A stretch of 64,000 nt of DNA from Halobacteriales archaeon QS_1_68_20 (GTDB lineage: Archaea; Halobacteriota; Halobacteria; Halobacteriales; PXRE01). Made by a program: the position numbers and the translations under genes. Location: positions 3,433 through 67,432 of the forward strand of contig PXRE01000005.1 in assembly GCA_003021085.1 (NCBI GenBank). The letters are read 5' to 3'. Below, in pieces: positions 10,987-53,576 of the stretch; the first letter of the stretch is position 1, and the number at the start of each line of letters is the position of its first letter. Below the pieces are notes generated by a model that ran no database searches, was not told where the DNA came from, and was given only the letters and a program-made list of their open reading frames with translations.

Positions 10987-10992
10987 GGTTCG

Positions 10993-12455: not shown

Positions 12456-12785
12456 GGCTAACAGGAGGGGACTCTCCATTGCTACTTAATATTTGCGTCT
12501 AACGCCCGGTGAACACAATTAGGTCGTGGAAAACGAACGTTCTTAGTTCCTAGATTTTAAGCAACGGTTCCGGTTATATACGTTCGATTACCTAACGGTA
12601 ACCACCCCCGACGGACCCCCGGCCGAGGACGACGGTCACCCGCCGGCCCCGGTCGTCGGACGAAACGGCGGGACGGCGACGGGAAATCATGCTGATCTAC
12701 CTGCTCGGGCGCCCGGACCGTCGAGGTGACCACCGACTGCCGGTACGCCGAGCTGTGCGCTCTCGCCGGCGAATATTCTAGATGA

Positions 12786-13175
12786 TTAGTGCTCAACGAA
12801 CTCGATCAGGATGCCGCCCGTCGAGCGTGGGTGGAGGAAGGCGACGTCGTGGCCCCAGGCGCCCGGGCGGGGTTCCTCGTCCACCAGGCGGACGCCCGCC
12901 TCGCGCGCGGTGTCCAGGGCCGCCTCGATGTCGTCGGTCTCCAGCGCGAGGTGGTGGATGCCGGGGCCGTTCCGTTCGAGGTACCGCGGGATGGATCCGC
13001 CGGCGTCCTCGGTCGGTTCCAGCAGTTCGAAGTAGCCGTTGCCGAACTCGAGGAAGGTGATTCGCAGGTCGTCGAACACTTCCTCGTGGGCGACCGGGGC
13101 GTCGAACAGGTCGCTGTAGCGGTCGGCGAGTTCCGCGGCGTCGTCGGTGGCGATTCCAGCGTGATCGAAGCGCAT
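12786..13175 (-). CDS. methylmalonyl-CoA epimerase / VOC (glyoxalase) family protein
   Basis: 129 aa: MRFDHAGIATDD...GIHHLALETDDIEAAL...HPRSTGGILIEFVE. Confidence 0.8.
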   Translation of the reverse strand: MRFDHAGIATDDAAELADRYSDLFDAPVAHEEVFDDLRITFLEFGNGYFELLEPTEDAGGSIPRYLERNGPGIHHLALETDDIEAALDTAREAGVRLVDEEPRPGAWGHDVAFLHPRSTGGILIEFVEH

Positions 13176-13336
13176 ACCAACCCGTACGTTCGCTCACAAG
13201 AAAAACGTTGGAGGCTCGACGGGACGACCGAATTTTCCCCGGCGACAACGTTTTTGTACTGATAGGTCGGTGCAGAAAACGTGGCAGTTACGCGCGACCG
13301 AACGGAGGTCGCCGCTGGACGACGGTGAGCAACACG

Positions 13337-14113
13337 ATGTACGACTTCGAGGGCGAGACGGTGCTGGTCACGGGCGGAACGAGAGGTATCGGCAAGGAGG
13401 CCGGTCGCCTGTTCCTCGAACACGGCGCGACGGTCGTCCTGAACTACCACGACGACGACGAGGCCGCCGAGCAGGCCCGTTCGGACCTGTCCTCGACCGG
13501 TCCCGGCGAGGTTCACCTCGGCAAGTTCGATGTCGCCGACGAGGTGGCCGTCGACGAGGCCGTGGAAGCCATCTGGGAGGAGTACGGCCCTATCCGGCAT
13601 CTCGTGAACAACGCGGGCGTGCTGGCCAACGTCGGCCCCCTCGTGGGCATGGAAAGGGACGACTGGGACAGCGTCGTCGACGTGAACCTCGGCGGCGCGT
13701 TCAACGTCGTCCGCGCCGTCGGCAAGCGGATGGTGCTGGCGGGCATCGACGGGAGCATCGTCAACGTCTCCAGCATCACCGCCAGGCGCGGATTCCCCGG
13801 CGAGATCCACTACGGTGCCAGCAAGGGCGGCCTGGTTTCGATGACCCGCGCGCTCGCCCGCGAACTCGGTCGCCGGAACATCCGCGTCAACGTCGTCCTC
13901 CCCGGGTACACGAAGACGTCGATGGCCGACACCGGCCACTTCCCCGGGGCGGACTTCGAGGACTTCCGCGAGAAGGAACTCTCCCGGGTTCCCCTGGAGC
14001 GGCGGATGGCCGACCCCGAAGAGGTGGCGGAGGTCATCGTCTTCGTCGCCAGCGACCGCGCGAGCTACATGACCGGGTCCGAGATCCGGGTCGACGGCGG
14101 ACGACTCGCTTGA
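13337..14113 (+). CDS. SDR family oxidoreductase (FabG-like)
   Basis: ATG at 13337 (MYDFEGETVLVTGGTRGIG); NNAG, YGASKGG motifs. Confidence 0.85.
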   Translation: MYDFEGETVLVTGGTRGIGKEAGRLFLEHGATVVLNYHDDDEAAEQARSDLSSTGPGEVHLGKFDVADEVAVDEAVEAIWEEYGPIRHLVNNAGVLANVGPLVGMERDDWDSVVDVNLGGAFNVVRAVGKRMVLAGIDGSIVNVSSITARRGFPGEIHYGASKGGLVSMTRALARELGRRNIRVNVVLPGYTKTSMADTGHFPGADFEDFREKELSRVPLERRMADPEEVAEVIVFVASDRASYMTGSEIRVDGGRLA

Positions 14114-14151
14114 TCGGTCGTGGGTCGAGTAGCAGATTGACCTGGGCTCCC

Positions 14152-14361
14152 GGCGCGCGCGAGCAACGTGCGCGAGGGACGAGTTGAGCGTCCGGGTGCG
14201 CGTGCCGAGCACCGCGAGGCCGCGAACCCCGGCCGAACGAGGAGGCTGGGGAGGGTGTGGCCATCCCCAACCGATTGCGCTCCTCACTTCGTTCCGGTGC
14301 TCATCCCTCGCGCAGTGTTTGTTCGCGGTCGCCGAGGGCGACACGCTCACCAGCGCGCGCC
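14152..14361. repeat. GC-rich MITE-like intergenic repeat, family A, internally collapsed copy
   Basis: Same termini (ggcgcgcgc ... gcgcgcgcc) as 6312..6623. Shares gtgccgagcaccgcgaggccgcgaacc and ggctggggagggtgtggccatcc-ccaaccgattgcg. The two halves are mutually inverted. Confidence 0.7.
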
Positions 14362-14458
14362 GGGGCGGTTGGACGTGCTGGCCGTATCACTGGCCGGTAT
14401 CCGGACCTGGCACGTTCACGTCCCGTAGCGATTTGGTCGCGGCGTGCGATGAGTAGGT

Positions 14459-15190
14459 ATGCCACGGACAGCGGTGATCGCCGGGGTCGGCCCCGGCCTG
14501 GGCGAGTCGATAGCGCGCAAGTTCGCGGACGAGGGGTGCTCGGTCGGCCTGTTCGCGCGCTCGGAAGACTACCTCGACGAACTCGCCGCGGACCTGCCGG
14601 GCGAGGCCCTGGCGGTTCCGACCGACCTCACCGACCCCGACGCGATCAGGGCGGGGTTCGACGCGGTGCGCGAGGATCTCGGCCCCGTGGACGTGCTGGT
14701 CAACCACGCCAGCGCAGGGTCCTGGAAGGGCCTGCTGGACGCCAGCGTCGAGGAGTTCGAGCGCGCGTTCCACGTCAACGGCCGGGGCGCGTTCGTCTGC
14801 TCGCAGGAAGCCGTCTCCGACATGCTCGGCCAGGAGGGACGCGGGGCAGAAGCCGACCAGGACGACGAAGCCGGCGGGACGATTATCTTCACTGGCGCGA
14901 CGTCGGCGGTCCGCGGGCGGGAAGGCGCTATCGGCTTCTCCGCCGCCAAGTTCGCCGCCCGGGGGATGGCCGAGTCCATGGCCCGGGAGTTCGGCCCCGA
15001 GGGCGTCCACGTCGCCCACGTCGTCGTCGACGGCCAGATCCGCACGCCGCAGGCCCGCGAGTCCGACCGCCCCGCACACGAGTTCTTCGACCCCGACGAG
15101 ATCGCGGAGACCTACTGGCACCTCGTGGAACAGGACCGCTCGGCGTGGACGCTGGAACTGGACCTCCGGCCCCACGTCGAGGAGTTCTGA
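14459..15190 (+). CDS. SDR family oxidoreductase
   Basis: AGVGPGLGESIA glycine-rich loop, FSAAKFAARG (YxxxK-like region); 243 aa. Confidence 0.75.
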   Translation: MPRTAVIAGVGPGLGESIARKFADEGCSVGLFARSEDYLDELAADLPGEALAVPTDLTDPDAIRAGFDAVREDLGPVDVLVNHASAGSWKGLLDASVEEFERAFHVNGRGAFVCSQEAVSDMLGQEGRGAEADQDDEAGGTIIFTGATSAVRGREGAIGFSAAKFAARGMAESMAREFGPEGVHVAHVVVDGQIRTPQARESDRPAHEFFDPDEIAETYWHLVEQDRSAWTLELDLRPHVEEF

Positions 15191-16328: not shown

Positions 16329-16374
16329 TCGGCCGGAAACGTAATGACCGAGCAGGTCGTGTTTTAGTATTGTC

Positions 16375-18987
16375 ATGACGGCGGAGGGTGACCTCGGCCC
16401 GTTCGACCGGGTCGGCGACCGACTCGCCGACGCGTCACTGGAGGATCCGGGGACCTACTGGCGGACGGGGTTCACGCTCGCCGCCGTCGACGCCGGGTAC
16501 GCCTTCGAGCGGACGGCCGACGTCACGTCCGTCCTCGCTGAACTCCGGGAGGGCGACGTGGCGGTCGTCGGCGCCCCCGGCGTCGGCAAGAGCACCGCCT
16601 GCAAGCAGGTCGCCTGCCGGTGGCGCGAGGACGACGGCCCGGTCTACTACGCCGAGGCCCCCGACGCGGACGCCGACCTCTCCCGACTGGTCGACCGCAT
16701 CCACGACGCCGAGGGCCACGCGCTCGTCGTCCTCGAAACCGCCGTCGGGGACGACGGGACGCTGGCGTCGGCGCTGCTGGACCGCTCGTCTGCCCGCGAG
16801 GACGTGAGCGTCCTCCTGGAGGTCCACCGCCCGGCGGTCGACGAACCGGGCGGCGACGAGGCCACCGTGGCACGGGAACTGCTCGCCGCGACGTCGACCC
16901 ACGAACTGCCGGCGCTGGACCGCGAGGCGTTCGAGGCCGCCGTCGAGCACTTCGAGACGGTCACCGGGGACGCGGTCGTCCAGCCGGCGGGAACCATCTT
17001 CGACGACATCCGCCAGCGCGGCGTCGAGGGGAACGAACTCCTGCACCTGGCCCACCGGGTGAGCGCCGACGGCGAGAGCAGTTTCCACCGGGCCGTCCAG
17101 CACGAGTACGAACGGTGTGCGGCCGCACCGGATCCGGTGGGCGACATCGCGTTGCTGGTCAACCTCCTCAACGCGGCGGACCTCCCGCTGTACTCGGAGT
17201 TGCTGTTCGCCGTGGACGCACCCAACGAGGCCGTCGACGAGGCCATCGACCGACTCCTGGACGACGTCCTCTTCCGGCAGGTGGGCCGGCCCGCCTTCGC
17301 CTCCTACCACCGCCTGTGGTCGGCGCTGTACCTCGAACAGTTCCTCGAACGCGCCGAGGACCCCCACGAGCGGTTCGCGGAGGCCGTCGGCGCCATCCTG
17401 CGGGCGATGGATCCCGACGAGCGCGACCGGTTGTGGTCGTGGGTGCTCGAACACGCGACCCACGGACCGGCCGACGAATCGCCGGCAGACGACGGCGACG
17501 GCGACGACATCCTCACGTCCGACGCCCGGACGAAGACGACGGCCGTGGGGACGACCGCCCGCGTCGTCGAGCAACTGTTCGCCGTCGGGACCCGGTGGCC
17601 GGACCTGGCGCCGCTGTTCGGGACCAGCGAACGCGACGCGCTCCCGCTGGCAGAGCACTGCTCGACGGTCACCCGGACCCGGGCCGTCTCGACCCACGGG
17701 CGGATGTACTTCGACCGCGGCGACTTCGAGGCGGCCCTCCAGGAGTTCGAGCACGCCCAGCAGTTGCTGGAGGCTGCCACCGACGTCTCCCCGCGACTGG
17801 CCGACCGGTTCCGGATCGACTACTTCGTCGACCGCGGGCGGGTCGCCGTCCGGCGGGGCAAGTTCGACCGCGCGGACTCGTGCTACCGGGCGGCTCACGA
17901 GATGGCGACCGACCTCGGGGACCGCCGGGGCCGCGCCCGGGCGCACATGCACCTCGGGGTCACGGCCGTCAAGTCCGGTGACCTGTCGGCGGCGGTGGCC
18001 CACCTCACCGCCGGCGAGCGCCTGTTCCGGGACTGCGACGACGCCTTCGGCGTGGCGAAGTCGCTCGGCCGACTCGGGGTCGCCCGCCTGCACCGGGGCG
18101 AACTCGACGCGGCGACGGACGCCCTCGAACGGGCCATCGAGCAGTTCCAGCGACTCGGCGACCGGATGAACGTCGCCCGCTACCGGAACAACCTCGGCAT
18201 CGTGGCGATGTCCAGGGGCGACTACGAGACGGCGGCCGCCCACTACCGCCAGAGCCTCCGGATGAACCGCGAGAGCGGCAACCGCGCCGGCGTCGCCAAG
18301 AACAACCTCAACCTCGGGAACCTCTCGATGAAGCGCGACGACGACGAGGCGGCGAGGCGACACTTCCAGGAGGCCCTGTCGGTCGCCCGGTCGCTCGGCG
18401 ACCGCGACACCGAGTCGACCGCGCGCAACAACCTCGGCGTGCTGGCGGCCGACCGCGGGGACCTGGACGCCGCAGTCAGTTACTTCCGCCAGAGCCTGGA
18501 CATCTGCCGCACCACGGGCAACCGCCGGGGCGAGGCCCGCGCGCTGAACAACCTCGGCGACGTCGCCCGCGAGCGCGGCGACCTCGACGAGGCCGAATCC
18601 TACCACCGCGAGAGCCTCGAGATCCGCCGGGAGACCGGCGAGGCCGAGGGGCGGGCGAACTGCCACCGGATGCTCGGCCGCTGTGCGCTCGCCCGTGAGG
18701 ACCTGGACGCGGCCGAAGACCAGTTGCGGACCGCCCTCGACCGGTACGCCGAACTCGGCGACGACGTCGAGCGTGCCCAGACGCTCCGCCTGCTCGCCCG
18801 GGTCGCCCGCGAGCGCGGCGACGTCGACGCGGCGCTGGACCGCCTGGTCGAGAGCGTCGAACTGTTCGGTCGCACGGCCTCGGACCGCCGCGAGGAGACC
18901 GTCGAGGAACTGGAGGCGCTGGCCGCCGAGCACGACCGCGAGGTGCCGGTGGGTCCGCTTGCTGACGCGGGCGAGTCGCCGTCCTGA
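16375..18987 (+). CDS. STAND-like P-loop NTPase with a C-terminal array of about 9 tetratricopeptide repeats
   Basis: Walker A GAPGVGKST at about aa 67, hydrophobic-acidic Walker B-like ALVVLE. The C-terminal 400 aa consist of 40-aa repeats of type ARxxNNLGxVAxxRGDLDEAxxYxxxSLxI. Confidence 0.8.
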   Translation: MTAEGDLGPFDRVGDRLADASLEDPGTYWRTGFTLAAVDAGYAFERTADVTSVLAELREGDVAVVGAPGVGKSTACKQVACRWREDDGPVYYAEAPDADADLSRLVDRIHDAEGHALVVLETAVGDDGTLASALLDRSSAREDVSVLLEVHRPAVDEPGGDEATVARELLAATSTHELPALDREAFEAAVEHFETVTGDAVVQPAGTIFDDIRQRGVEGNELLHLAHRVSADGESSFHRAVQHEYERCAAAPDPVGDIALLVNLLNAADLPLYSELLFAVDAPNEAVDEAIDRLLDDVLFRQVGRPAFASYHRLWSALYLEQFLERAEDPHERFAEAVGAILRAMDPDERDRLWSWVLEHATHGPADESPADDGDGDDILTSDARTKTTAVGTTARVVEQLFAVGTRWPDLAPLFGTSERDALPLAEHCSTVTRTRAVSTHGRMYFDRGDFEAALQEFEHAQQLLEAATDVSPRLADRFRIDYFVDRGRVAVRRGKFDRADSCYRAAHEMATDLGDRRGRARAHMHLGVTAVKSGDLSAAVAHLTAGERLFRDCDDAFGVAKSLGRLGVARLHRGELDAATDALERAIEQFQRLGDRMNVARYRNNLGIVAMSRGDYETAAAHYRQSLRMNRESGNRAGVAKNNLNLGNLSMKRDDDEAARRHFQEALSVARSLGDRDTESTARNNLGVLAADRGDLDAAVSYFRQSLDICRTTGNRRGEARALNNLGDVARERGDLDEAESYHRESLEIRRETGEAEGRANCHRMLGRCALAREDLDAAEDQLRTALDRYAELGDDVERAQTLRLLARVARERGDVDAALDRLVESVELFGRTASDRREETVEELEALAAEHDREVPVGPLADAGESPS

Positions 18988-32558: not shown

Positions 32559-32688
32559 CGCCCTGGAGTGTGTTCGCCGGCCGCCGGGGCGGCGACCATG
32601 CTACCCGCTCGTCCGATTACCTGGCTCCGTCGAAGCCGTTCAGGATCGAACGGACACCTAATTACGACTGGCGACCGACCCTCCCGAC

Positions 32689-34332
32689 ATGGACGTAGCC
32701 CTGGTGATCCTCGACGGCTGGGGCCTCGGACCGACGGACGATCCGGACCACCGCAACGCCGTCGAGACGGCCGAGACGCCGAACTTCGACCGCTACGCCG
32801 ACGCCGGCGCCTACGGGACCCTGGAGGTCTCCGGGCGCGCGGTCGGGCTGCCGGACGCCCAGATGGGCAACAGCGAGGTCGGTCACCTCAACGTCGGCGC
32901 GGGCCGGGTGGTCTACCAGGAGTACACCCGGATCAACGATTCCATCACCGCCTCCGACCTCGACACCCTGGGCGACCTGGAGGCCTCCGGCGCCGGGAAC
33001 GTGCCCGACGAACCGTTCGACGAGAACCCCGCCCTGCTCGCGGCGTTCGAGCACGCCCGCGAGCACGACGGCCGGGTCCACTTCATGGGGCTGGTCAGCG
33101 ACGGCGGCGTCCACTCGGACTACGAGCACCTGTTCGCGCTGATCGAGATGGCAGACGACCTCGGCGTCGACGCGGTCACTCACGCGTTCACCGACGGCCG
33201 GGACACCGACCCCGAGAGCGGCGCCGGCTACCTCCGGGACCTCGAAGCCGTCGTCGACCGCTACGGGACCGGCGAGGTCGCCACCGTCTCCGGGCGCTAC
33301 TACGCGATGGACCGCGACCGCAACTGGGACCGGACGAGACGCGCCTACGACGTCATCACGCGACGCGTGGTGAGCAATCAGAACCCGGAGAATTCTGATG
33401 ACGCCATGGTGAACCGCCAGGCCGAGTTCGAGGCGCCCTCGGCGGTCGAATCGTCCTACGACCGCGGGACGACCGACGAGTTCGCCGAACCCACCCTCGT
33501 CAGCGGCGAACCGGCCCTGGAGGACGGCGACGGGGTAGTATTCTTCAACTTCCGGGCCGACCGCGCCCGCCAGTTGACCCGGATGCTCGCGGACCTGCCG
33601 CCCGAGGACGACTCGGTGGCCGAATCGGGGACCACCTGGCCGGATCCGCCCGAGGTGACGGTGACGACGATGACCGAGTACGACCGGACGTTCGACCTCC
33701 CGGTGGCGTTCGAACCGCACCAGCCCGGGGACGTGCTGGGCGAGGTGCTGGCCGACGTCGGCTACAGTCAGTTGCGCATCGCCGAGTCCGAGAAGTACGC
33801 CCACGTCACCTACTTCCTCAACGGCGGCCGCGAGGTGGAGTTCGACGGCGAAATTCGCCGCATCGTCGAGAGCCCCGACGTGCCGACCTACGACCAGCAG
33901 CCCGAGATGAGCGCCCCGGAGGTCACCGACACCGCCATCGAGTGCATCGAGGATCGGGACCCGGACGTGATGGTCCTGAACTACGCGAACCCGGACATGG
34001 TCGGCCACACCGGCGACTACGAGGCGGCGACCACCGCCGTCGAAGCCGTCGACGAGCAACTGGGCCGACTCGTGGACGCCTGCCAGGAGGCGGGCGCCCA
34101 CGTCCTGCTCACCGCCGACCACGGCAACGCCGACGACATGGGCACCGAGGAGGACCCACACACTGCCCACACCTACAACGACGTGCCGCTCGTGTACCTC
34201 GCGCCCGACGGGACCGACGGCGGGAACCGAATCCGGGGCGGTGGCCGACTGGCGGACGTCGCGCCGACGATGCTGGCGTTGCTGGGGATCGACGAGCCCG
34301 AGGCGATGACCGGGGAGGAGTTGTTGACCTAG
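32689..34332 (+). CDS. gpmI: 2,3-bisphosphoglycerate-independent phosphoglycerate mutase
   Basis: ILDGWG, MGNSEVGHLNVGAGR, TADHGNAD motifs; 547 aa. Confidence 0.9.
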   Translation: MDVALVILDGWGLGPTDDPDHRNAVETAETPNFDRYADAGAYGTLEVSGRAVGLPDAQMGNSEVGHLNVGAGRVVYQEYTRINDSITASDLDTLGDLEASGAGNVPDEPFDENPALLAAFEHAREHDGRVHFMGLVSDGGVHSDYEHLFALIEMADDLGVDAVTHAFTDGRDTDPESGAGYLRDLEAVVDRYGTGEVATVSGRYYAMDRDRNWDRTRRAYDVITRRVVSNQNPENSDDAMVNRQAEFEAPSAVESSYDRGTTDEFAEPTLVSGEPALEDGDGVVFFNFRADRARQLTRMLADLPPEDDSVAESGTTWPDPPEVTVTTMTEYDRTFDLPVAFEPHQPGDVLGEVLADVGYSQLRIAESEKYAHVTYFLNGGREVEFDGEIRRIVESPDVPTYDQQPEMSAPEVTDTAIECIEDRDPDVMVLNYANPDMVGHTGDYEAATTAVEAVDEQLGRLVDACQEAGAHVLLTADHGNADDMGTEEDPHTAHTYNDVPLVYLAPDGTDGGNRIRGGGRLADVAPTMLALLGIDEPEAMTGEELLT

Positions 34333-43685: not shown

Positions 43686-44855
43686 CTACGCTTCCTGCGC
43701 GGACCCGACAGATCGGAGGTCGACGGGGTCGTCCTGCAGGTCGATCACGTGATCCGGCTTCGGTCCGGTCTTGAACAGGCCCAGCTCCGCGTCGGTGTTA
43801 GCGACCACCTCGTCGACCGATCGGAGCCACTCGCGGGTCTCAGGCGTTAGCTCTGCAAACGTGCCGACCCCGTAGTTGTCCACGTCCAGGTAATCGAGGA
43901 ACGTGATGGCGATCTTGTCGGGGTCGTTGAGTTCGATCGCCTCCCGGAACTGCTGCCAGGACCACTCGAAGACGCGCCGGTTGCGTTCGGTCACGCTCGC
44001 GAGCTCGGTCGGCGGCTCGTCGTGGCCGGCACGCTCGGCGATGGTCTCGAAGTCGATCTCCTCGGTGTCCATCGGCCCCGAGTTCTCTCCGGCGCGGATC
44101 GGGTACGTCCGGAAGACGACCCAGACGTCCCGGACCGCAGATGGCGGGAGCCCCGCCGACGAGAGGAACGACGACGCGGTGCAGTCCCGGGAGGTCGTGA
44201 ACGGGTAGTGGTTGCTCTGGTTCATCGAGAGCTGGGTCCCCTGGGTCCCCTCCACGATGACCGACTCGCCCCTGCGGCCGTACTCCAGGAGCCGGCTGGC
44301 GACCCGGCTGTCGACGTACGGCTGTAGTTCCGGACGGTCCTCGGCGAGGTCGGCGCTGCCTGCGCTCCGCCAGATCTTCTCGCTCCGGACCGCCCCACAG
44401 CCGTGAACCGTGGAGCCGATCTCCTCACCGAGACTCCGGTCGCGCTCGAGCTCGCGGTGGCCCTCGTCGATGATCGCCGCCTTCGGGTCGACGTAGATCC
44501 GGTCGCGAGTCCCCTCGCCGTGGAGGTCCACGAGGCGCTCGATCTCGTCCTGGATCTCCCCGAGTCCGAACGAGGATTCGGCGGCCATCAGCAGATCGAC
44601 CTCCGGGTCGACGATGCCGGGCGACGGGATGACCTGCTGGATGTGCGGCGACTCGTCGGCGTCGTAGACGGTGTGACCGGCGTTCGACGAACCGGGGCGA
44701 ACCGCGCCACCGTACTGGTTCCGTCTCGCGAGATGGCCCGCCACTGCACCCTTCCCCTCGCTCCCTGCCTGGCCGCCGACGACGACGTCTGCGAATCCCT
44801 GGGGGGGTTCCGCGATGTTCACGTTCGCTCGAGATTCTGTCCTATCAATTGACAT
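43686..44855 (-). CDS. divergent adenylosuccinate synthetase (PurA) family ligase
   Basis: PurA landmarks are present but altered: P-loop GGQAGSEGKG (canonical GxQWGDEGKG), SNAGHTV, IGSTVHGCGA, EGTQGTQLS, YPFTTSRD, VTERNRRVFEW (canonical TTGRxRRxGW). Confidence 0.75.
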   Translation of the reverse strand: MSIDRTESRANVNIAEPPQGFADVVVGGQAGSEGKGAVAGHLARRNQYGGAVRPGSSNAGHTVYDADESPHIQQVIPSPGIVDPEVDLLMAAESSFGLGEIQDEIERLVDLHGEGTRDRIYVDPKAAIIDEGHRELERDRSLGEEIGSTVHGCGAVRSEKIWRSAGSADLAEDRPELQPYVDSRVASRLLEYGRRGESVIVEGTQGTQLSMNQSNHYPFTTSRDCTASSFLSSAGLPPSAVRDVWVVFRTYPIRAGENSGPMDTEEIDFETIAERAGHDEPPTELASVTERNRRVFEWSWQQFREAIELNDPDKIAITFLDYLDVDNYGVGTFAELTPETREWLRSVDEVVANTDAELGLFKTGPKPDHVIDLQDDPVDLRSVGSAQEA

Positions 44856-44994
44856 TATACCTGACCGTATCCCGCTAATGTCGCGAAGCTATTAATTTTA
44901 ACTAATCTCAAATAGTATTAGGAAGAAAAAATTATTGGCATGGATACACTCGGCGGAACGATACGTGCCGGCCGCGAGCAGGGCCGTTGCGGCC

Positions 44995-45045: not shown

Positions 45046-46086
45046 TCACACGTACACGCCAGCGTACGCCCCCATGAGCGCCAGGAGGTAGACCGCGTTG
45101 ACGATGTCGATCCGGTACAGCGTCGAGACGGTGCTCGTGTCGAAGACGTACAGGACGCCCGACGCGACGATGCCGAGCACGAGGAACCCGGCCAGCGCCA
45201 GCGGGTCCGCAACGCCGAGCAGCACCCCGCCGGCCACGTACGACACCGGGAAGCTCACCATGAGGTACTTGGTCGCGCGCTCGCGGCCCACCTTGACGAC
45301 GAAGTTCTCGACGCCGGACTTGGCGTCGTGTTCGGCGTCCTTGAGGTCCTTGTAGGACATGTTCAGCGCCATGAACAGGAACACGACGGCGGCGAGCCGC
45401 GTCGACTCCGTGGTCGGGGCATCGACGACCGCCGCGCTCCCCAGCAGCACGCCCGCGACGCCCATCAGGCCCGCGGAGACCATGCTGGTGACCACGCCTC
45501 CTTTGAGCCTGATCGGCGGAACCGAGTAGAGGACGTTGATGACGATCATCCAGATGGCACCGGCGACGGCGTACAGGTTGATGGCTGCCGCGAACCCGCC
45601 CCCGGCGATCCAGAGGACGACCGCGGCCACGAACGCCTCCCGGTCGGTCAGCTCGCCCTGGGCGGTCGCCCGGTGGGGGCTGGCGTGTTCGTCGGTCTCC
45701 CTGTCGAAGACGTCGTTCATGAACCACGAACCACACCACGTCAGCGCCAGCGCCCCGGCACCGGCCACGATGGTCGTCGCCGACGGGACCGCGTTCCCGG
45801 TCCCAACCATCTCGAAGACGATGCTGACCGCGAACAGCGCCCAGAATGCGATCACTGCCGACATCATCTTGGCCGTGCGCCTGCCGAGGAGCTTCGCCTT
45901 CCGGGGCTGGGTCACCGCGTACGCTGCGTAGGAGACGCCCAGCACTCCGGTGATCGCACCTACGAGAACCGTCGACGAGATCGGAACGACCGCACTCACG
46001 GCCGGGACACCTCCCACGGCTGATCGACGAGCGCGTCCGAGTCCTCCGGTACCTTCGACATGTCTCCCGATAGCAGCCCTTTCCAT
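45046..46086 (-). CDS. UbiA family membrane prenyltransferase
   Basis: First Asp-rich motif NDVFDRETDEH followed by HRATAQGELT; second motif YKDLKDAEHDAKSG; 8-9 TM helices. Confidence 0.85.
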   Translation of the reverse strand: MERAAIGRHVEGTGGLGRARRSAVGGVPAVSAVVPISSTVLVGAITGVLGVSYAAYAVTQPRKAKLLGRRTAKMMSAVIAFWALFAVSIVFEMVGTGNAVPSATTIVAGAGALALTWCGSWFMNDVFDRETDEHASPHRATAQGELTDREAFVAAVVLWIAGGGFAAAINLYAVAGAIWMIVINVLYSVPPIRLKGGVVTSMVSAGLMGVAGVLLGSAAVVDAPTTESTRLAAVVFLFMALNMSYKDLKDAEHDAKSGVENFVVKVGRERATKYLMVSFPVSYVAGGVLLGVADPLALAGFLVLGIVASGVLYVFDTSTVSTLYRIDIVNAVYLLALMGAYAGVYV

Positions 46087-46157: not shown

Positions 46158-47132
46158 ATGGTGTACGTAGGAGTTGATCACTCGACGACTGGCGTGAAAG
46201 TAGGGATACTGGACGGCGACGAGGAGCAAACGGCGTTCACGCTCGACCGGGCCCGCCTCGGGGACGGGAGCGTCACCCTCCTCGACGCGCTCTCCGAGCG
46301 CGTGACCACTGACGCCATCGACCGGGCGGCGATCACCTACAGCTGGGGCAACGGCATCGCGTCCATCCAGGACATCGAGCGGACCGACAATCGGGGGATC
46401 AAGGATCACATCGGCGCGGGGTACGAACTCGGCGGGGGCACTGCCGCCTACGACGAGCTCGAAGCGTCGTCCGTGCCGGCCGTGGTGATCCCGGGGGTCC
46501 ACAGGGAACTCCCACCGCTGCACCCGTACTTCAGCCACTACTCGGCGCTGGCCGGCGGCGACAAGGTGGCCGCGATCCGGTACGCCCAGCACCGACTGGC
46601 CGACGAGACCGACGGCGAGGAGTTCATCTGGGCGTGCGCGAGCTCCTCCTGCATGGCCGGACTCGTCTCCGACGGTGCGCTCCGTGGCTTCTTCCACTGG
46701 ATGGGGCTGATGCATGGGTGGCCCGACCCGGAGGCGTTGCGGGAGATGGACGAGGACCGGGTCGAGGACGTCCTGATGCGGTGTGGCGTTCTCCACCGCT
46801 CGGGCCTGGAGTTCGACGAGATCAGGGAGACGCCCGACGAGCAAGCGATGGAGATGTGCTACTGGGCGACGGTCCACAACATCTACTCCCTGGTGCCGTT
46901 CGCCCACGAGACCGGCGGCGGGCCGCCGGAGGCGATCGCCCTCACCGGACGGTTGACCCGGGTCGACGAGCCGGACCTGTCCGGCCGGGTCGCCGAGACC
47001 TGCTCGGACGTGGCTCCCACCTACCGGTGTGGCGAGTACAGCTCGGCGTACGGAGCCGCCCACGTTGCCCGCGACGTCGACCGCGGCGAACCGGACGTCC
47101 TCGGCATCCCCGTCGCGGAGGGTCTGGCATGA
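46158..47132 (+). CDS. ASKHA-fold (sugar kinase/Hsp70/actin-like) protein, DUF1464/UPF0285-like
   Basis: N-terminal phosphate-1 motif VYVGVDHSTTGVKVGI; 324 aa. Family name recalled, not searched. Confidence 0.55.
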   Translation: MVYVGVDHSTTGVKVGILDGDEEQTAFTLDRARLGDGSVTLLDALSERVTTDAIDRAAITYSWGNGIASIQDIERTDNRGIKDHIGAGYELGGGTAAYDELEASSVPAVVIPGVHRELPPLHPYFSHYSALAGGDKVAAIRYAQHRLADETDGEEFIWACASSSCMAGLVSDGALRGFFHWMGLMHGWPDPEALREMDEDRVEDVLMRCGVLHRSGLEFDEIRETPDEQAMEMCYWATVHNIYSLVPFAHETGGGPPEAIALTGRLTRVDEPDLSGRVAETCSDVAPTYRCGEYSSAYGAAHVARDVDRGEPDVLGIPVAEGLA

Positions 47133-47674
47133 GCCGGATCTTCGTCGCCGGGCCGATCGACTACCGACCGCTGAACGAGGTCGTCGACTACCGGCTGCGG
47201 CTCGCCGACTTGGTGCGGGAGGAGGGGCACTCGCTCGTCGACCAGTACTCCGGCGCCCTCGAACGGGTGGCCGACATCGACTTCGGCGGCGGACCCGTCG
47301 ACCTCGACGAGATCCGGGACGTCATCGCCTCGCTCCCGGACGAGCCGTACGTGGAGGCGCTCAGACACGCCATCGACGAGCACTCGCTGCTCGCAGTGGT
47401 CCAGTCGCCGGGCCTCGTTCCCGAGGAGATGCCGCCAGAGATCGTCGAGGCGCTCGTCCACCGTGACCTCGAGCTGGTCGAGGAGGCCGACGCCGTCCTG
47501 GCGTACCTCCCGCGGCCGTCCTGTGGGACGACGGCCGAGATCGTCCACGCCCACGACCTCGGGCTCCCCATCGTCGTCGTCAGCGAGGAACCGCCCACGT
47601 TCATCCGGTACTACGCCGACGAGGTGCTGACCGACGAGGCCGACGCGATCGCCGCGCTGGAGGACTACGTCTAG
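47129..47674 (+). CDS. nucleoside 2-deoxyribosyltransferase-like (Rossmann-like N-glycosidase/transferase fold) protein
   Basis: ATGA overlap with the upstream gene. MSRIFVAGPI start and LPRPSCGTTAEIVHAHDLGLPIVVV match the family pattern xxGTxxExGxA with the catalytic Glu. Confidence 0.5.
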   Translation: MSRIFVAGPIDYRPLNEVVDYRLRLADLVREEGHSLVDQYSGALERVADIDFGGGPVDLDEIRDVIASLPDEPYVEALRHAIDEHSLLAVVQSPGLVPEEMPPEIVEALVHRDLELVEEADAVLAYLPRPSCGTTAEIVHAHDLGLPIVVVSEEPPTFIRYYADEVLTDEADAIAALEDYV

Positions 47675-47709: not shown

Positions 47710-48585
47710 CTAGGGGGTCCTGACGGTGAACGAGAGGCCGCCCCGCTGGTCGCCCGGGAAGTCCCCGTGGTCGTACGCCGCCGCGATCGCGTCGCCGAGC
47801 TCCCGACACCGCTGCTCGGTCTCCGGCGACAGTCCGGCACAGAGGAGGTGTGACCCGACCAGCCCCGGGTCCGTGGAGAGTCCGTGGTTCGCGGGGGCCT
47901 CCAGCGCGAGCTCGCCACACCAGGCCGAACTCGCGTCGTCGAGCTGCTCGCGGACCTCCTCGCGGACGTGCTCCCACCGTCGCTCGATGGCCTCGGCGGA
48001 CTCGAAGCCGTACCACAGCAACGCCACGTCGCCGCGGGCGGCAACGTCGGCGAACAGTTCGATGGGGGTCAGGCCGGCTGGATCCGTCGCCGCGAACGTC
48101 TCGAACGGGTCGACGTGGACGACGTCGGTCCCGTCACCGTCGGCAGCGATGCCAGCAGCCACCCCGGAGAGGCCGTCGGCGGGGACGGCGTTCACCGCCG
48201 ACGAGCAGTCCCGTCTCGACGCTTCCTCGCGGATGGAGTCGAGACACCCGGGGTCGACGTCGAAGAAGTAGTAGTCGGCGGCGTCACCCAGGACGCCCAT
48301 CGCGAGCGCGGGCGACCCCAGGTACGTCTCCGGGTCAGTCCGACTGTCGTTCGCCTCGCTGAACAGCGTCGTGTACGTCGCCGAGTCCAGCGCGGGGACG
48401 TCGCGGCTGCGTGCGAGGTACCGGCCGGCGCCGAACTGGCGCTCGTCGGCTTCGTCCATCGCGTATCTCGCCGCCCCGGCGTGGGTCTCCCAGAACCGGT
48501 CGGGCCGCTCTTCGTCGAGGATCGCACACGTCAGCAGGTGCTTCCAGACGTCTCCGACGTTGCCGAAGTGGTGGTTTCCGATCAT
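47710..48585 (-). CDS. RlmJ-like (DUF519) SAM-dependent methyltransferase-fold protein with altered motif IV
   Basis: ATG at 48585 inside track ORF 47710..49158. HHFGNVGDVWKH, ETHAGAARY, YLGSPAL and LLWYGF parallel E. coli RlmJ. The DPPY position reads DPFE. Confidence 0.6.
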   Translation of the reverse strand: MIGNHHFGNVGDVWKHLLTCAILDEERPDRFWETHAGAARYAMDEADERQFGAGRYLARSRDVPALDSATYTTLFSEANDSRTDPETYLGSPALAMGVLGDAADYYFFDVDPGCLDSIREEASRRDCSSAVNAVPADGLSGVAAGIAADGDGTDVVHVDPFETFAATDPAGLTPIELFADVAARGDVALLWYGFESAEAIERRWEHVREEVREQLDDASSAWCGELALEAPANHGLSTDPGLVGSHLLCAGLSPETEQRCRELGDAIAAAYDHGDFPGDQRGGLSFTVRTP

Positions 48586-50687
48586 GGTTGCTCTCGCAAT
48601 CGAACGACGATGGCGACTGCAACGGCCAGCACCAGAAGGTTGGCGACGAGCCAGGGCGGCACCGGCAGCGACTCGTCCGCCGGCCCGGGACGGTCCGGGG
48701 ACGTGTCCACGCCGGCCGCGTCCGCGTACGCCGACAGCGCCAGCAGCGCTGCCGCCTGGGTCCACGCCTCGTCGACGTACGTTGGCGGAGCGCCCTGGTA
48801 CATGACGGGCGAGGCCGCCCACGAGCCGTCGGGGCGCTGGGTGTCCAGCAGGTACTGGACGCCGGCGCGGACCGCGGGGTGGTCCGGCGAGTACCCCGCC
48901 GCGAGCAACGCCTGCAGCGCCCACGCGGTCTGCTCTGGCGTGGACGGCGCCGACAGGTACTGGGCGTCGTCCCACCCCGGGAAAGTGCCGCCTTCGAGGA
49001 TCCCCTCGCCCCACCCGCCGTCGGGGTTCTGGCGCTCGACGAGCGCGGCGGCGGCCTCCTGGATCTCGGGGCGGTTCGGGTCGACGCCGACGCCGACCAG
49101 TCCCTGGATCACCCTGCTCGTCCCGTAGGTGTACCGCACGCCCCACTTCGCCGGCCACATCTCGGTCCGGTCACGTGCGCCGAGCAGGTAGTCGACGGCC
49201 GCCCTGACGGAGGCGTTGTTCTCGACGGTGTACCCGTGGGCCCCCAGCGACATGAGGACGTGCCCGTTCGTCCCTGGGACCGGCTCGTCGCCGAACAGCG
49301 TGCGGTAGAGGCCTCGGTCCAGCTCCTCACGGAGGTCCGATTGCTCGCTCTCGTTCAGCGGATCGAAGTCGGTCGACCACGTCGACCAGGTTCCGTCCTC
49401 GTTCTGGACGTCGAAGAGGAACGTCACCGAGTCCGCCACGACCATCTCGTCGTACGGCGCGAGGGTCCTGGTCACGACCGCCGTCTCTCCCCAGTTGCTC
49501 TGCAGTTCGGGTTTGTACGACCAGCCGTGGCCGTAGTGGCTGCGGAACGGCAGCGGCGGTCGATCCAGCGTCAGGTTCCTGCGCGTCCGGTAGACGTTCG
49601 TGGTCGTCCTGGCGTCGACCAGCCACTGGGCGGCGTCCTTGACGGTCTCGTTGTCGGGGGACAGTCCCGAGCTCGTCAGCGCCTGCACCGTCCAGGCGGT
49701 GTCCCAGACGGGGGTCCGGAAAGCGACGAACCGGCCGCTCGGGGCCTGCCTGTTCTCCTCCAGCCACCGGGTGGCGATCCGGATCGGGTCGTCGTCGACC
49801 TCGTAGCCCGCCTCGTGGAGCGCCAGTACGGCGTACATCGTGTCGAACGCGGTCGCCCAGGCGCCGCTGGTCTGGCGGCGCTTCAGGAGGACCTCGGTGA
49901 GGGCTTCCTTGGCGTCCTCTTCGTCCGTGGAGACGTTCGAGCGCACCTCCAGCGACAGGACGTTCAGACTGATCATCGTGTCCAGCGCGTTGTGGTTGAC
50001 GGCGTGGTCGGTCGGGGAGAACTCACCCTCGAAGGCAGGCGTCAACAGCAACAGCCCCGGCAGCTCCTTGAGGGTCTCGTTCGGGAACAGCTCCCCGGCC
50101 GAGCGGCGCTCGTCCATCAGCGTGTAGAACAGCCGCGTCCGGTAGAGGAAGATCTCGTCCCTCGGGGTCTCGGCCTCCACGTCGACGAGGCTCGCGTTCG
50201 CCCGGTCGAGTTCGCTGCGGATCGCCCGCCGCTCGGCCTGGTACTCGCCGTCGAGTTCGGACAGCAACAGCAGTCCGGCGTAGTTGGCGATGGTGTCGTT
50301 CCACCCGCCGTCCGGTTGCCGTCGCTGCAGCACGTACTCCACCGCGCGCCGCTTGCTCTCGGAGTCGATGCCCAGTCGCTCGAGTACGAGTGCGTACTCG
50401 ATCGTGTACCTGAGGTCCCAGGGACGCAGCCCGCCCATGGAGATGTTCGACGCCCAGTGGTCGCCGGTCCTGTTGGGGCTGTCGAGGATGTACGACCGGG
50501 AGTCATCGACCGCCTGGGCCACCGCGGTGTCCGTCGGTGAAGCCGCGTCTGCCGGCGAACGAGCCGACGCCTGCGCGATCGGACCGAACTGCGCAGTCAG
50601 AAACAGAACGCAGACGGCGAGTACCTTGACGGTCCCCGTGACTGCGGCCAGCCGGTTCCGTCGCCCGGCCGCTCGCGTACCCTTCAT
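48582..50687 (-). CDS. squalene-hopene cyclase family protein A, membrane-anchored, DxDD motif degenerate (SNWGETA)
   Basis: QW repeats (RRQPDGGWND, VQNEDGTWS, RQNPDGGWGE, TQRPDGSW). C-terminal STPEQTAWALQAL...RAGVQYLLDTQRPDGSW closely parallels bacterial SHC. N-terminal signal/anchor and C-terminal TM. ATGA overlaps on both sides. Confidence 0.8.
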   Translation of the reverse strand: MKGTRAAGRRNRLAAVTGTVKVLAVCVLFLTAQFGPIAQASARSPADAASPTDTAVAQAVDDSRSYILDSPNRTGDHWASNISMGGLRPWDLRYTIEYALVLERLGIDSESKRRAVEYVLQRRQPDGGWNDTIANYAGLLLLSELDGEYQAERRAIRSELDRANASLVDVEAETPRDEIFLYRTRLFYTLMDERRSAGELFPNETLKELPGLLLLTPAFEGEFSPTDHAVNHNALDTMISLNVLSLEVRSNVSTDEEDAKEALTEVLLKRRQTSGAWATAFDTMYAVLALHEAGYEVDDDPIRIATRWLEENRQAPSGRFVAFRTPVWDTAWTVQALTSSGLSPDNETVKDAAQWLVDARTTTNVYRTRRNLTLDRPPLPFRSHYGHGWSYKPELQSNWGETAVVTRTLAPYDEMVVADSVTFLFDVQNEDGTWSTWSTDFDPLNESEQSDLREELDRGLYRTLFGDEPVPGTNGHVLMSLGAHGYTVENNASVRAAVDYLLGARDRTEMWPAKWGVRYTYGTSRVIQGLVGVGVDPNRPEIQEAAAALVERQNPDGGWGEGILEGGTFPGWDDAQYLSAPSTPEQTAWALQALLAAGYSPDHPAVRAGVQYLLDTQRPDGSWAASPVMYQGAPPTYVDEAWTQAAALLALSAYADAAGVDTSPDRPGPADESLPVPPWLVANLLVLAVAVAIVVRLREQP

Positions 50688-51300: not shown

Positions 51301-51545
51301 CGATGAGCTAACCAATCTTCCGTGATTTATTAAAACCTTCGACATTTATACGGGCCTCCGCTGAAAAACCCTTCCCCGCGGCCGAGGCGGGGCCTGGGCC
51401 CGCGCTCGTGGTGTCAGAACCGGGATCCCCGGTTCCGTCAGACGGCGTTCTGGCCGTTGTATCCACGACGAACTGCGTTTATTGTACTATCTATTTATTA
51501 GATTAGTAAGGCTTATTGACTTCTGATCGACAACTAGTGAGGGAA

Positions 51546-53576
51546 ATGCTGATCGGCGGAAAGAGAGTGAGCGCAATTGCGTTTGCATTGTTGCTGGTCA
51601 CGTCGATGGTTGGTACGGCGATCACGCTCGGCGTCACCGCGGCGGCGGACTCGGACGCGGCCGGACCATCCGAGGCCGAGGTCCAGCAAGCCGTCGACGA
51701 CTCTCGCCAGCACCTCCTGAACTCGATGGAGGACGACCACTGGGCATCTGCCGTCCGATCGGGCCGAAACGGTATCTGGGACGTCAGGTGGTCGATCTAC
51801 TACGCGGTGATGCTCGAACGCCTGGACGCGAAGCCGAAGAGCCAGCAGGCGGCGATCGACTGGGTGCTCTCGAAACGGAACTCGAACGGTGGGTGGAACG
51901 ACACCGTCGCCAACTACGGTGCGTTGCTACTGTTCGAGGAGATGAACACCGACCAGTACGACGACGTCGTCGCGGACGTCAGGGCAGAGAACCAGCGCAA
52001 CGACATCTCGCTGGTCTCGGGGAACGCCAGTCAGGGCCAGTCGTTCGTGGAGGACAACCTCCGCCTGAAACTCCTGTACGGCCTGATGAGCGACAGATAC
52101 ACCAACGAACAGCTGTTCCAGGACGGCAATCCCGGCGGGTTCGGCGAACTCGGTGGGATGACCCCCGCGTTCGAGAACGGCTTCCACCCGAACAAGTCCT
52201 TCGTCATGCCGGACACGGTCGACCTGACGCTGAGCATGACCACGATCGGTCTGGCCATCGAGCGCGACAACGGGTGGGAGCGAGGCAACAGGAGCGAGGA
52301 GCTGAACCGGACCGCGGAGCTGCTGCTCGCCCGCCGGCTACCCAGCGGCGTCTGGGCGACGTCGATCGACAACATCTTCGCCGTGCTGGCGCTCAACGAG
52401 GCGGGCTACGACGCCGACGACCCCGAGATCTCCCGGGCGCTGGATATGATGGCGGAAACCCGGCAAGCGTCCAACGGCAGGATCATCGGGTTCAAGCTGT
52501 CGGTCTGGGACACCGCCTGGTCCATGCACGCCCTCGTGGAGAGCGGCGTGTCGCCGAAGCACGAGAAGCTCCAGTCCGCGGCGCAGTGGCTCTACGACGC
52601 TCGCGCGTCTCCCCCGTCCCAGAAGCGCGCGGACGTCCCCCTCAAGCGGCCCCCGATCCCGTTCCGCCCGAACTTCGGGAAGGGCTGGGGGTACAAGCCG
52701 CACATGTACAGCGACTGGGACGACACGGCGGTCGCCGTCGTCGCGCTCGAACCCTACGACGACCGCATCGTCGAGGAGCACATCCAGTACCTCTTCGACG
52801 TGCAGAACTCCGACGGTAGCTGGGCCGCGTTCGTGACGGACTTCGAGCCGCTCAACGAGTCCGAGCGCGAGGATGTCATCGAACGAGGCGGCGAGGACCT
52901 GTACGTGCAGCTGTTCACGACCCACCAGTCGCCGGACGTGACCGGCCACGTCCTCAAGGCCCTCGGGTCACACGGGTACACCGTCGAGAACAACGCCTCC
53001 GTCAGGGCGGCCGTCGACTTCCTGATGAACGCCCGCGACGACACCGGCATGTGGCGGGCCGTCTGGGGCAAGGGCTACGTCTACGGGACCAGCCGCGTCC
53101 TCATGGGCATGAAAGCCGTCGGCGTCGACATGAACCAGGCGGCGATCCAGGAAGCTGCGGGGGCGCTCGCTGCTCGCCAGAACCCCGACGGCGGCTGGGG
53201 CTACCGCAACGGTCCCTCGGAGCCGACCTACACCGCCTGGGTCGTCGAGGGGCTGCTCGCGGCGGGGTACTCGCCGGACCACCCCGCGGTCCGCGCCGGC
53301 GTCCAGTACCTGCTGGACACCCAGCGCCCCGACGGCTCCTGGAAAACCACGAAGATGATGCACAACCTGGAGCGGCTGGAGTACAGCCTCTCCGTGTTCA
53401 CGCAAGCCAGCGTCCTGTCGGCGCTGTCAGCGTACGCCGACGCGCGTGGCGTCCCCATCGACCCCGACCACGAATCCAGCCCGCTGGACGACCTCGCGTT
53501 TCCCCTCGCCGTGATCGGCGCCCAGGTCGCGTTCGTCGCGGTCGGGGTGCTGGTCGCCCGTCGGCGTTCGCCCTGA
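51546..53576 (+). CDS. squalene-hopene cyclase family protein B, membrane-anchored, intact DxDDTA motif
   Basis: SDWDDTAVAVVAL at nt 52713..52730 matches the class II terpene cyclase proton-donor motif. QW repeats (KRNSNGGWND, VQNSDGSWA, RQNPDGGWG, TQRPDGSW). N-terminal TM and C-terminal TM plus RRRSP. ATG at 51546 preferred over the TTG at 51516. Confidence 0.8.
   Translation: MLIGGKRVSAIAFALLLVTSMVGTAITLGVTAAADSDAAGPSEAEVQQAVDDSRQHLLNSMEDDHWASAVRSGRNGIWDVRWSIYYAVMLERLDAKPKSQQAAIDWVLSKRNSNGGWNDTVANYGALLLFEEMNTDQYDDVVADVRAENQRNDISLVSGNASQGQSFVEDNLRLKLLYGLMSDRYTNEQLFQDGNPGGFGELGGMTPAFENGFHPNKSFVMPDTVDLTLSMTTIGLAIERDNGWERGNRSEELNRTAELLLARRLPSGVWATSIDNIFAVLALNEAGYDADDPEISRALDMMAETRQASNGRIIGFKLSVWDTAWSMHALVESGVSPKHEKLQSAAQWLYDARASPPSQKRADVPLKRPPIPFRPNFGKGWGYKPHMYSDWDDTAVAVVALEPYDDRIVEEHIQYLFDVQNSDGSWAAFVTDFEPLNESEREDVIERGGEDLYVQLFTTHQSPDVTGHVLKALGSHGYTVENNASVRAAVDFLMNARDDTGMWRAVWGKGYVYGTSRVLMGMKAVGVDMNQAAIQEAAGALAARQNPDGGWGYRNGPSEPTYTAWVVEGLLAAGYSPDHPAVRAGVQYLLDTQRPDGSWKTTKMMHNLERLEYSLSVFTQASVLSALSAYADARGVPIDPDHESSPLDDLAFPLAVIGAQVAFVAVGVLVARRRSP

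Follow-up and report, generated by a model that had tools for sequence, protein, structure and literature searches.

To our knowledge, the PurZ chemistry that puts 2-aminoadenine in the place of adenine is known only from bacteriophages, and the origin of PurZ has been linked, though only loosely, with archaeal PurA. Here we describe a PurA-family protein (hereafter the ligase) encoded in a 64-kb stretch of DNA (64,000 nucleotides of contig PXRE01000005.1, hereafter the window) from Halobacteriales archaeon QS_1_68_20. The described systems nearest to it are orthodox short archaeal PurA, such as that of Pyrococcus horikoshii (5K7X), and two groups of phage enzymes, PurZ and PurZ0. PurZ, from phiVC8 and S-2L (NF038379; PDB 6FM1 and 7ODX), is a deoxyguanosine monophosphate (dGMP):aspartate ligase that depends on ATP or dATP. 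PurZ0, from Gordonia and Arthrobacter phages (PDB 7VF6), is a GTP-dependent N6-succino-2-amino-2'-deoxyadenylate synthase, according to Tong et al. 2023 as cited in PMC12884076. Within the PurA clade, Asp13 (Escherichia coli PurA numbering) shows 99% conservation and is described as essential, and 147 phage PurZ sequences all (100%) have Ser at this position (PMC12884076). The same source, citing Tong et al. 2023, places four sequences from archaea, in which Ser or Gly stands for Asp13, as basal to PurZ and PurZ0.

The account that we favor, with moderate confidence, is that the ligase would act as a GTP-dependent guanine-nucleotide:aspartate ligase of the Ser-type PurZ/PurZ0 branch, encoded on a chromosome and catalyzing the first step toward 2,6-diaminopurine nucleotides. 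A role as the housekeeping enzyme that converts inosine monophosphate (IMP) to adenylosuccinate is very unlikely. The open reading frame (ORF) itself is genuine and intact, and dN/dS values of 0.2-0.36 against five homologues (64-76% identical) show it to be under purifying selection. Its product is a PF00709 protein (Pfam, E 8.6e-38), and it is alone in the window in encoding a member of the PurA family. An in-frame GTG at 44822 provides an alternative start, leading to a form of 378 aa; this shorter form is the one annotated on two contigs from metagenomes, which share 99.5% identity with the window. The gene has a GC content of 0.67 and a GC3 of 0.86, and the composition of its neighbors is alike.

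When the ligase was aligned with E. coli PurA, Asp13 fell on Ser32, and further changes were found at T128 (Ser), T271 (Ile) and A275 (Ser, preceded by a two-residue insertion), together with the loss of R304. In the numbering of the ligase this signature reads S32, S148, I253, S259 with the insertion, and N292 for R304. Exactly this set is common to phiVC8 PurZ, S-2L PurZ and PurZ0, and is not found in orthodox PurA. The PurA residues K16, N38, H41, T129, R143, Q224, T301, R303, R305 and D333 are all conserved. Moreover, 11 of the 14 dGMP-pocket residues of S-2L PurZ (list from PMC8342488) are identical in the ligase, and the aspartate loop conserves V288, T289, R291 and R293. The original prediction, made from the letters of the window, had quoted six PurA landmark blocks (GGQAGSEGKG, SNAGHTV, IGSTVHGCGA, EGTQGTQLS, YPFTTSRD and VTERNRRVFEW), every one of which is present in the translation. 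It had noted that each block is altered, but the alterations are not peculiar to this protein: the same changes are the signature of the known PurZ/PurZ0 group. PurZ is therefore more than an analogy: because the PurZ/PurZ0 signature is present in the ligase, the two are kin.

Family scores and the predicted structure place the ligase in the PurA fold but outside the established equivalogs. The top-scoring family model was NF003295, the short archaeal PurA equivalog, with 251.5 bits against a cut-off of 368; the PurZ model NF038379 gave 230.9 bits against 300 and the PurA model TIGR00184 153.5 bits against 395.55, so that none of these three NCBIfam cut-offs was reached. PHROG 1211 also matches the ligase (4e-66). 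Among the sequences of PDB, P. horikoshii PurA came first (6e-48), followed by phiVC8 PurZ (3.5e-39) and PurZ0 (1.6e-34). The AlphaFold2 model (pLDDT 91, pTM 0.91) returned the same three families in the same order at the top of a Foldseek search, with target-normalized template modeling (TM) scores of 0.94, 0.87 and 0.82, the first of which (to 5K7X) confirms the PurA fold. Membership in the PurA-family fold, as had been proposed, is thus borne out (PF00709, Foldseek), and the scores lie under the equivalog cut-offs of an orthodox adenylosuccinate synthetase.

In a neighbor-joining tree of 73 sequences (340 columns, 100 bootstraps), orthodox short archaeal PurA formed a monophyletic group apart from the ligase (100% bootstrap), and the Ser-type proteins formed one clade that includes it (97%). 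The suspicion that the ligase is not an orthodox PurA is therefore upheld by the phylogeny, in which it sits in a separate Ser-type clade rather than nesting among the archaeal enzymes. It also falls outside the PurZ0 clade (100%). Together with 29 close relatives (51-76% identity), the ligase makes up a hypersaline clade supported at 100%, which divides into the subclade of the window (87%), a sister subclade found in virus contexts (86%; 92% for the pair) and a low-GC subclade (87%). A member of the latter, L009:1172-2233 (GC 0.28), lies in a cellular-looking context with metallophosphoesterase, Fe-S assembly and ribonucleotide reductase small-subunit-like genes.

The Ser is a constant feature of this part of the family. 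All 114 readable P-loops among the nearest 120 word-index matches have GSEGKG, and the Asp13 position is Ser in 39 of 39 sequences of one alignment. An exhaustive search of 1.84 billion representatives gave 3,923 matches, 501 of them below 1e-30; of these, the 146 nearest representatives (50% clusters) include at least 129 with Ser at this position, two with Asp and two with Gly. No close relatives were found among 185,579 GTDB species genomes, nor in GenBank phage and archaeal-virus records, where the best match was 33% identity to PurZ0 phages. IMG/VR holds one close relative, and all the others are on metagenome contigs. The host of the window is a deep, uncultured lineage of Halobacteria: the iPGM encoded there shares no more than 68% identity with that of any named haloarchaeon, and 75-78% with metagenomic proteins. 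Such poor sampling of the host lineage makes the absence from reference genomes weaker evidence.

Which phosphate donor, and which sugar, would the ligase use? At the position of E. coli D333, the guanine-specificity residue, the ligase has an Asp, and this residue and the KTGP motif together make a donor pocket of the GTP type, like that of archaeal PurA and PurZ0. The ATP-using PurZ enzymes have Gln or Asn there (Q308 and N297, PMC8342488), and GTP rather than ATP is therefore expected for the ligase. For the sugar, two positions stand out. Val241 of S-2L PurZ, at position 273 of E. coli PurA, is placed so as to clash sterically with a ribose 2'-OH, and Arg303 of PurA, which contacts the ribose O2' and the aspartate, has no functional equivalent in PurZ (PMC8342488). 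Position 273 is Ala or Ser in eight of the nine members of the window subclade and Val in all 21 other members of the hypersaline clade, as it is in every aligned PurA, PurZ and PurZ0. Only two of the remaining aligned sequences depart from Val (L066, Ile; L011, Ser), and Val was found in 124 of the 133 sequences readable here among the 146 nearest representatives. The same eight window-subclade members combine Ala or Ser at 273 with R303, and the ninth carries both viral states. Every aligned Ser-type sequence from a virus context has V273 with Lys or Leu at 303, including all 14 from the sister subclade, the aligned IMG/VR PurZ-like sequences, phiVC8, S-2L and Pumancara, and every aligned PurA has V273 with R303. 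This co-variation suggests that the chromosomal enzymes may have relaxed or reversed the preference for deoxynucleotides. Acceptance of the ribonucleotide guanosine monophosphate (GMP) would be possible because Ala or Ser replaces the Val that blocks the 2'-OH and the Arg303 that contacts O2' is kept. A distant homologue, L011:10001-10990, from an Oscillospiraceae metagenome-assembled genome (MAG), independently has Ala11, Ser13, Ser273 and Arg303, like the window subclade.

By the mechanism that we propose, GTP would phosphorylate O6 of a guanine (2-amino-6-oxopurine) nucleoside monophosphate, as in PurZ0, with His61 as the likely acid and Lys35 and the P-loop presumably holding the phosphates. 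L-aspartate would then displace the phosphate to yield N6-succino-2-aminoadenylate, which the adenylosuccinate lyase of the host could convert to the 2,6-diaminopurine nucleotide. More speculatively, the substrate may be ribo-GMP, alone or alongside dGMP, and not strictly dGMP as in the viral relatives, and nucleoside kinases and N-glycosidases encoded nearby might feed or process the pathway, with diaminopurine nucleotides, nucleosides or the free base as product. That the chromosome of an uncultured haloarchaeal lineage encodes such a pathway, in which a ribo-tolerant PurZ-type ligase together with nucleoside kinases and N-glycosidases would make ribonucleotides or nucleosides of 2,6-diaminopurine (Z), seems to us doubtful as a whole.

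Several points weigh against our assignment. The single best match in both sequence and structure is a true PurA (P. horikoshii, TM 0.94). The substrate is read by transfer from PurZ structures through alignment; likewise, the residue map has roles carried over by alignment to E. coli PurA. The Ser of S-2L PurZ itself lies 3.7 Å from N2, beyond hydrogen-bond reach, and its part in the recognition of the 2-amino group is debated (PMC8342488). The tree is a neighbor-joining and not a maximum-likelihood one, and the census of PurA-family genes covers the 64-kb window. Furthermore, datZ, mazZ/DUF550, dpoZ and dut were all absent from the window ORFs scanned against Pfam. Finally, the cellular contexts discussed below are six in number and heterogeneous, several of them on short contigs.

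The relatives of the ligase occur in viral as well as in cellular settings. Two virus-context members, P0016 and P0028, are on contigs of 60-68 kb with 70% GC and small co-directional ORFs, with a family-B DNA polymerase 2-5 kb away. Among isolates, the best matches of these polymerases, with identities near 26%, are from tailed viruses of haloarchaea (HCTV-5, HVTV-1 and HSTV-2). A third, P0024, comes from a contig of 263 kb that also encodes a T4-type major capsid protein and a thymidylate synthase; it has a polymerase-like gene directly downstream and may belong to a jumbo bacteriophage. This adjacency to replication genes parallels that of phiVC8 purZ and Pumancara purZ0. At L005:10001-11152, L007:10001-11365 and L003:10001-11101, PurZ-like genes lie on virus contigs from hypersaline metagenomes, beside replication genes and a DUF6378 gene. 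These genes suggest that viruses of halophiles, perhaps of archaea among them, have genomes with 2-aminoadenine. The fetched flanks of the halovirus contigs contained no datZ, mazZ, dut or HD-domain genes of a Z-cluster, and the DUF6378 protein near a halovirus purZ-like gene showed no similarity to the Pumancara protein encoded downstream of PurZ0 and had no match in PDB.

On the cellular side, the context of L144 runs from a PNP_UDP_1 phosphorylase through an unknown gene to the ligase homologue, an inosine-uridine nucleoside hydrolase gene (IU_nuc_hydro) 4 bp downstream and an AAA-type kinase. In L148 a PNP_UDP_1 gene is 25 bp upstream of the homologue, with an APH-type kinase and a NUDIX gene in the same context. 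L145 has sugar-nucleotide genes, an RlmJ-like methyltransferase immediately downstream of the homologue and a ParB_N gene, and L156 has a squalene-hopene-cyclase-like (SHC-like) gene directly upstream; the context of L157 is too short for a judgment. No neighbor is conserved across all the cellular contexts. A kinase together with an enzyme that cuts or transfers an N-glycosidic bond is the recurring theme of three of the six; nucleoside-enzyme neighbors are found in L144, in L148 and, as the NDT-like gene, in the window.

In the window itself, the ligase gene is part of a chromosomal region, with housekeeping genes for ribose-5-phosphate isomerase, iPGM, Orc1/Cdc6, NurA and the proteasome alpha subunit (Table 1). 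A provirus or island origin of this copy was rejected: there are no tRNA genes, the flanks are housekeeping and the composition is ameliorated, and the window ORFs that were scanned include neither an integrase nor viral genes. A known defense system was also considered and set aside, PADLOC giving no match for the ligase or its neighbors; a literature search on PurA-like or adenylosuccinate-synthetase defense systems, and on adenylosuccinate synthetases of haloarchaeal viruses, turned up nothing useful. As had been noted from the sequence, purine-biosynthesis genes do not surround the ligase (none among about 45 window ORFs scanned), and a prenyltransferase of the UbiA family adjoins it. The 190-bp spacer between the two genes includes an AT-rich stretch, which is probably the promoter of the ligase. 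Here the original prediction was right about the AT-richness, but there is nothing out of the ordinary in it: because about ten intergenic stretches in this 69%-GC window are comparably AT-rich, we take it for an ordinary haloarchaeal promoter region, and rejected it as a special feature.

Beyond the UbiA gene, which has no counterpart beside the homologues in any of the other five cellular contexts (L144, L145, L148, L156 and L157), lies a gene for a methanogenesis-marker-12-like protein, without Pfam or PDB sequence match, here in a non-methanogen and 3 bp upstream of a gene for a nucleoside 2-deoxyribosyltransferase-like (NDT-like) protein. The two genes probably form one operon, and the pair shares with UbiA a divergent AT-rich promoter region of 72 bp. 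The NDT-like protein matches PHROG 355 (1.4e-5), keeps the GxxxE motif of the catalytic Glu and resembles the DmtZ domain of the DmtZ-DutZ fusion of the PurZ0 phage Pumancara (BLASTP E 1e-4). Encoded 2.3 kb from the ligase, it is a possible functional partner. Neither Dut nor DUF5664 was found near the ligase among the window ORFs scanned. Further on, the start of an RlmJ-like gene overlaps the stop of an SHC-like gene by 4 bp; its product is 55-58% identical to that of L145:4555-5406, the gene immediately downstream of the L145 PurZ-like gene. The two SHC-like paralogues of the window are 45% identical, with hydrophobic segments at both termini. SHC2 shares 59% identity with the product of L156:3764-5848, its likely orthologue directly upstream of the L156 PurZ-like gene, and its proximity to a ligase gene recurs in this one case. 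A terpene-nucleoside cluster (UbiA, the two SHC-like genes and the ligase) was considered but kept only within one of the rival readings below, as UbiA does not recur and the SHC-like proteins seem to be anchored in the membrane and extracytoplasmic. Far from the ligase, the window also holds a bacterial-type fatty-acid or polyketide set (9524-15190), here in a haloarchaeon, and a large protein with many TPR repeats that may be a signaling or defense-type NTPase.

Table 1. Positions in the window of the ligase gene, of its landmark residues and of other features named in the text.
Feature	Position	Strand	Remark
Acyltransferase	9524-10447		
4'-Phosphopantetheinyl transferase	10438-10992		
Beta-ketoacyl synthase	10993-12339		
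SDR	14453-15190		
Large TPR-repeat protein	16348-18987	+	weak, below-cut-off nSTAND_NTPase5 match
iPGM	32662-34332	+	
PurZ-like (Ser-type) PurA-family ligase gene	43686..44855	-	389-aa ORF, PF00709
Asp321 (E. coli D333, guanine-specificity residue)	43893..43895	-	with K362-T-G-P365, GTP-type donor pocket
Arg291-Asn292-Arg293 (E. coli R303-R304-R305)	43977..43985	-	R303 retained, R304 lost
Ala255 (E. coli V273, S-2L PurZ V241)	44091..44093	-	by alignment
P-loop GGQAGSEGKG, residues 27-36	44748..44777	-	Ser32 codon 44760-44762 in place of PurA catalytic Asp13
AT-rich intergenic region upstream of ligase	44856..44975	-	GC 0.42 overall, 80-bp minimum 0.31; window mean 0.69
UbiA-family prenyltransferase	45046..46086	-	directly upstream of ligase
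Methanogenesis-marker-12-like protein	46158..47132	+	TIGR03281, 167 bits against cut-off 181
NDT/DNPH1-family (NDT-like) protein	47135..47674	+	PF05014, 24.6 bits against cut-off 28.8
RlmJ-like methyltransferase	47710..48585	-	PDB RlmJ, E 1.8e-5; no Pfam match
SHC-like protein (alpha/alpha-toroid)	48582-50687	-	paralogue of SHC2
SHC-like protein SHC2	51510..53576	+	Pfam

Could the ligase still be an adenylosuccinate synthetase, acting on IMP, aspartate and GTP as a second isozyme or as the only PurA of its host, with Ser32 or another residue in the role of Asp13? The full PurA fold, with P. horikoshii PurA as best match and NF003295 as top model, would agree with this, and so would the conservation of K16, N38, H41, T129, R143, Q224, R303, R305 and the GTP pocket; the poor sampling of the host lineage also weakens what can be drawn from the absence of the clade among GTDB representatives. 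However, the residue replaced is the very Asp13 that is conserved in PurA and described as essential there, at least five signature changes are common with enzymes shown to use dGMP, and the ligase lies outside orthodox archaeal PurA, well under the PurA cut-offs, with a viral subclade as sister. We consider an adenylosuccinate synthetase of this kind improbable. The idea that the gene is a captured viral one, now a decaying relic without current cellular function, draws on the same viral sister subclade, on the monocistronic gene and on its changing neighborhoods, but it appears highly improbable in view of an intact ORF with all catalytic residues, of the dN/dS values across at least five chromosomal contexts, and of the ameliorated composition and housekeeping flanks free of tRNA genes and, among the ORFs scanned, of integrase or viral genes.

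A member of the PurZ group could also have moved to another 6-oxopurine nucleotide (xanthosine monophosphate, a 7-deazaguanine, an N2-modified guanine or a sugar-modified nucleotide) or to an amine other than aspartate, perhaps for a specialized metabolite made with the UbiA, SHC-like, RlmJ-like and NDT-like genes. The pocket does change in the window subclade, with A255 (or Ser) for a near-universal Val and E290 and N292 in the aspartate loop, and Ala30 takes the place, beside the 2-amino group, of a Trp in PurA and of a Tyr or Phe in PurZ; moreover, proximity to SHC-like genes, and likewise to RlmJ-like genes, recurs in two taxa. However, Ala30 is not specific to the cellular genes because the viral subclade has it too, the four aspartate-loop residues named above are conserved, UbiA adjacency is not, the SHC-like proteins look extracytoplasmic and no neighbor is common to all contexts. 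We judge such a shift unlikely. The original prediction had held a novel substrate or a non-aspartate amine donor to be plausible, and this we would now replace by the known class of substrates, a guanine nucleotide and aspartate, as the likeliest. A guanine-nucleotide:aspartate ligase of the PurZ/PurZ0 branch would remain our preferred assignment.

Bacteria also have PurA-like proteins with the GSEGKG P-loop, often fused to an N-terminal AAA-type kinase. Examples are L149:6470-8813, L150:6452-8744 and L151:6452-8744, on Burkholderia, Agrobacterium and Rhizobium plasmids, each fusion being followed by an overlapping DUF7002 gene (2e-63). Their neighbors include UvrD-helicase/PD-(D/E)XK, AbiJ-NTD4, RelA/SpoT, transposase and integrase genes, and the kinase fusion with DUF7002 looks like an uncharacterized two-gene module of defense or mobile islands. 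PADLOC gave no match for the PurA-like part of these fusions, and no literature on DUF7002 was found.

What does this clade add? A well-supported hypersaline group of Ser-type proteins with a GTP pocket is split between virus contigs, some like those of haloarchaeal tailed viruses, and archaeal chromosomes. It offers material for two questions: whether archaeal viruses build Z-DNA, and whether cells make diaminopurine nucleotides. The replacement of Val by Ala or Ser, co-varying with Lys or Arg at 303, provides a candidate determinant of the choice between ribo and deoxy substrates that lends itself to direct testing. The ligase hints at 2-aminoadenine chemistry outside viruses. If the cellular route exists, Z-base metabolism would extend beyond viruses, for example to an antiviral or antimetabolite product, to Z salvage or interconversion, or to the modification of nucleic acids, and the bacterial kinase-fusion/DUF7002 modules, with their defense-island-like contexts, could be a parallel case. 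Furthermore, thousands of database proteins named adenylosuccinate synthetase but bearing a GSEGKG P-loop are probably misnamed.

Compared with the known systems, the ligase is predicted to work most like PurZ0, while lying outside both the PurZ and the PurZ0 clades. With PurZ0 it has in common the short PurA fold, Ser at the Asp13 position, T128S, T271I, A275S with the two-residue insertion, the loss of R304 and the Asp at the D333 position. It differs by a sequence identity of only about 30-33%, and by being chromosomal and cellular, whereas PurZ0 is found in phages. PurZ0 has V273 and K303 where the ligase has A255 and R291, and the PolA, DutZ and DUF5664 genes adjacent to PurZ0 are not beside the ligase, the distant DmtZ/NDT-like gene 2.3 kb off being the only possible counterpart. 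PurZ is similar in its Ser signature, in 11 of 14 dGMP-pocket residues, in the Val-Thr and two Arg of the aspartate loop and in structure (Foldseek TM 0.87). Unlike PurZ, however, the ligase scores 231 bits, under the cut-off of 300, has Asp in the donor pocket and Ala in place of the Val gate, and has no datZ or mazZ neighbors.

Orthodox short archaeal PurA, as represented by the P. horikoshii enzyme, resembles the ligase in identity (34%), in fold (TM 0.94), in length class, in the GTP pocket and in R303; the ligase is set apart from it by the change of Asp13 to Ser and the other PurZ-group changes, by a score of 251 bits under 368 and by its separate clade. The four archaeal Ser/Gly sequences of PMC12884076, to go by their published description, are likewise archaeal, without Asp13 and grouped with PurZ. 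The bacterial Ser-type PurA-like proteins are like the ligase in the GSEGKG motif, the signature, the GTP pocket, their cellular location and an identity of 37-41%. However, they belong to another clade, are often fused to an AAA-type kinase with a DUF7002 partner in plasmid contexts resembling defense or mobile islands, and are annotated as adenylosuccinate synthetase; because they are uncharacterized, they give no functional anchor. As judged from these comparisons, the ligase belongs to a hypersaline branch of the Ser-type group, the chromosomal members of which differ from their characterized relatives in their setting and in two positions predicted to read the sugar.

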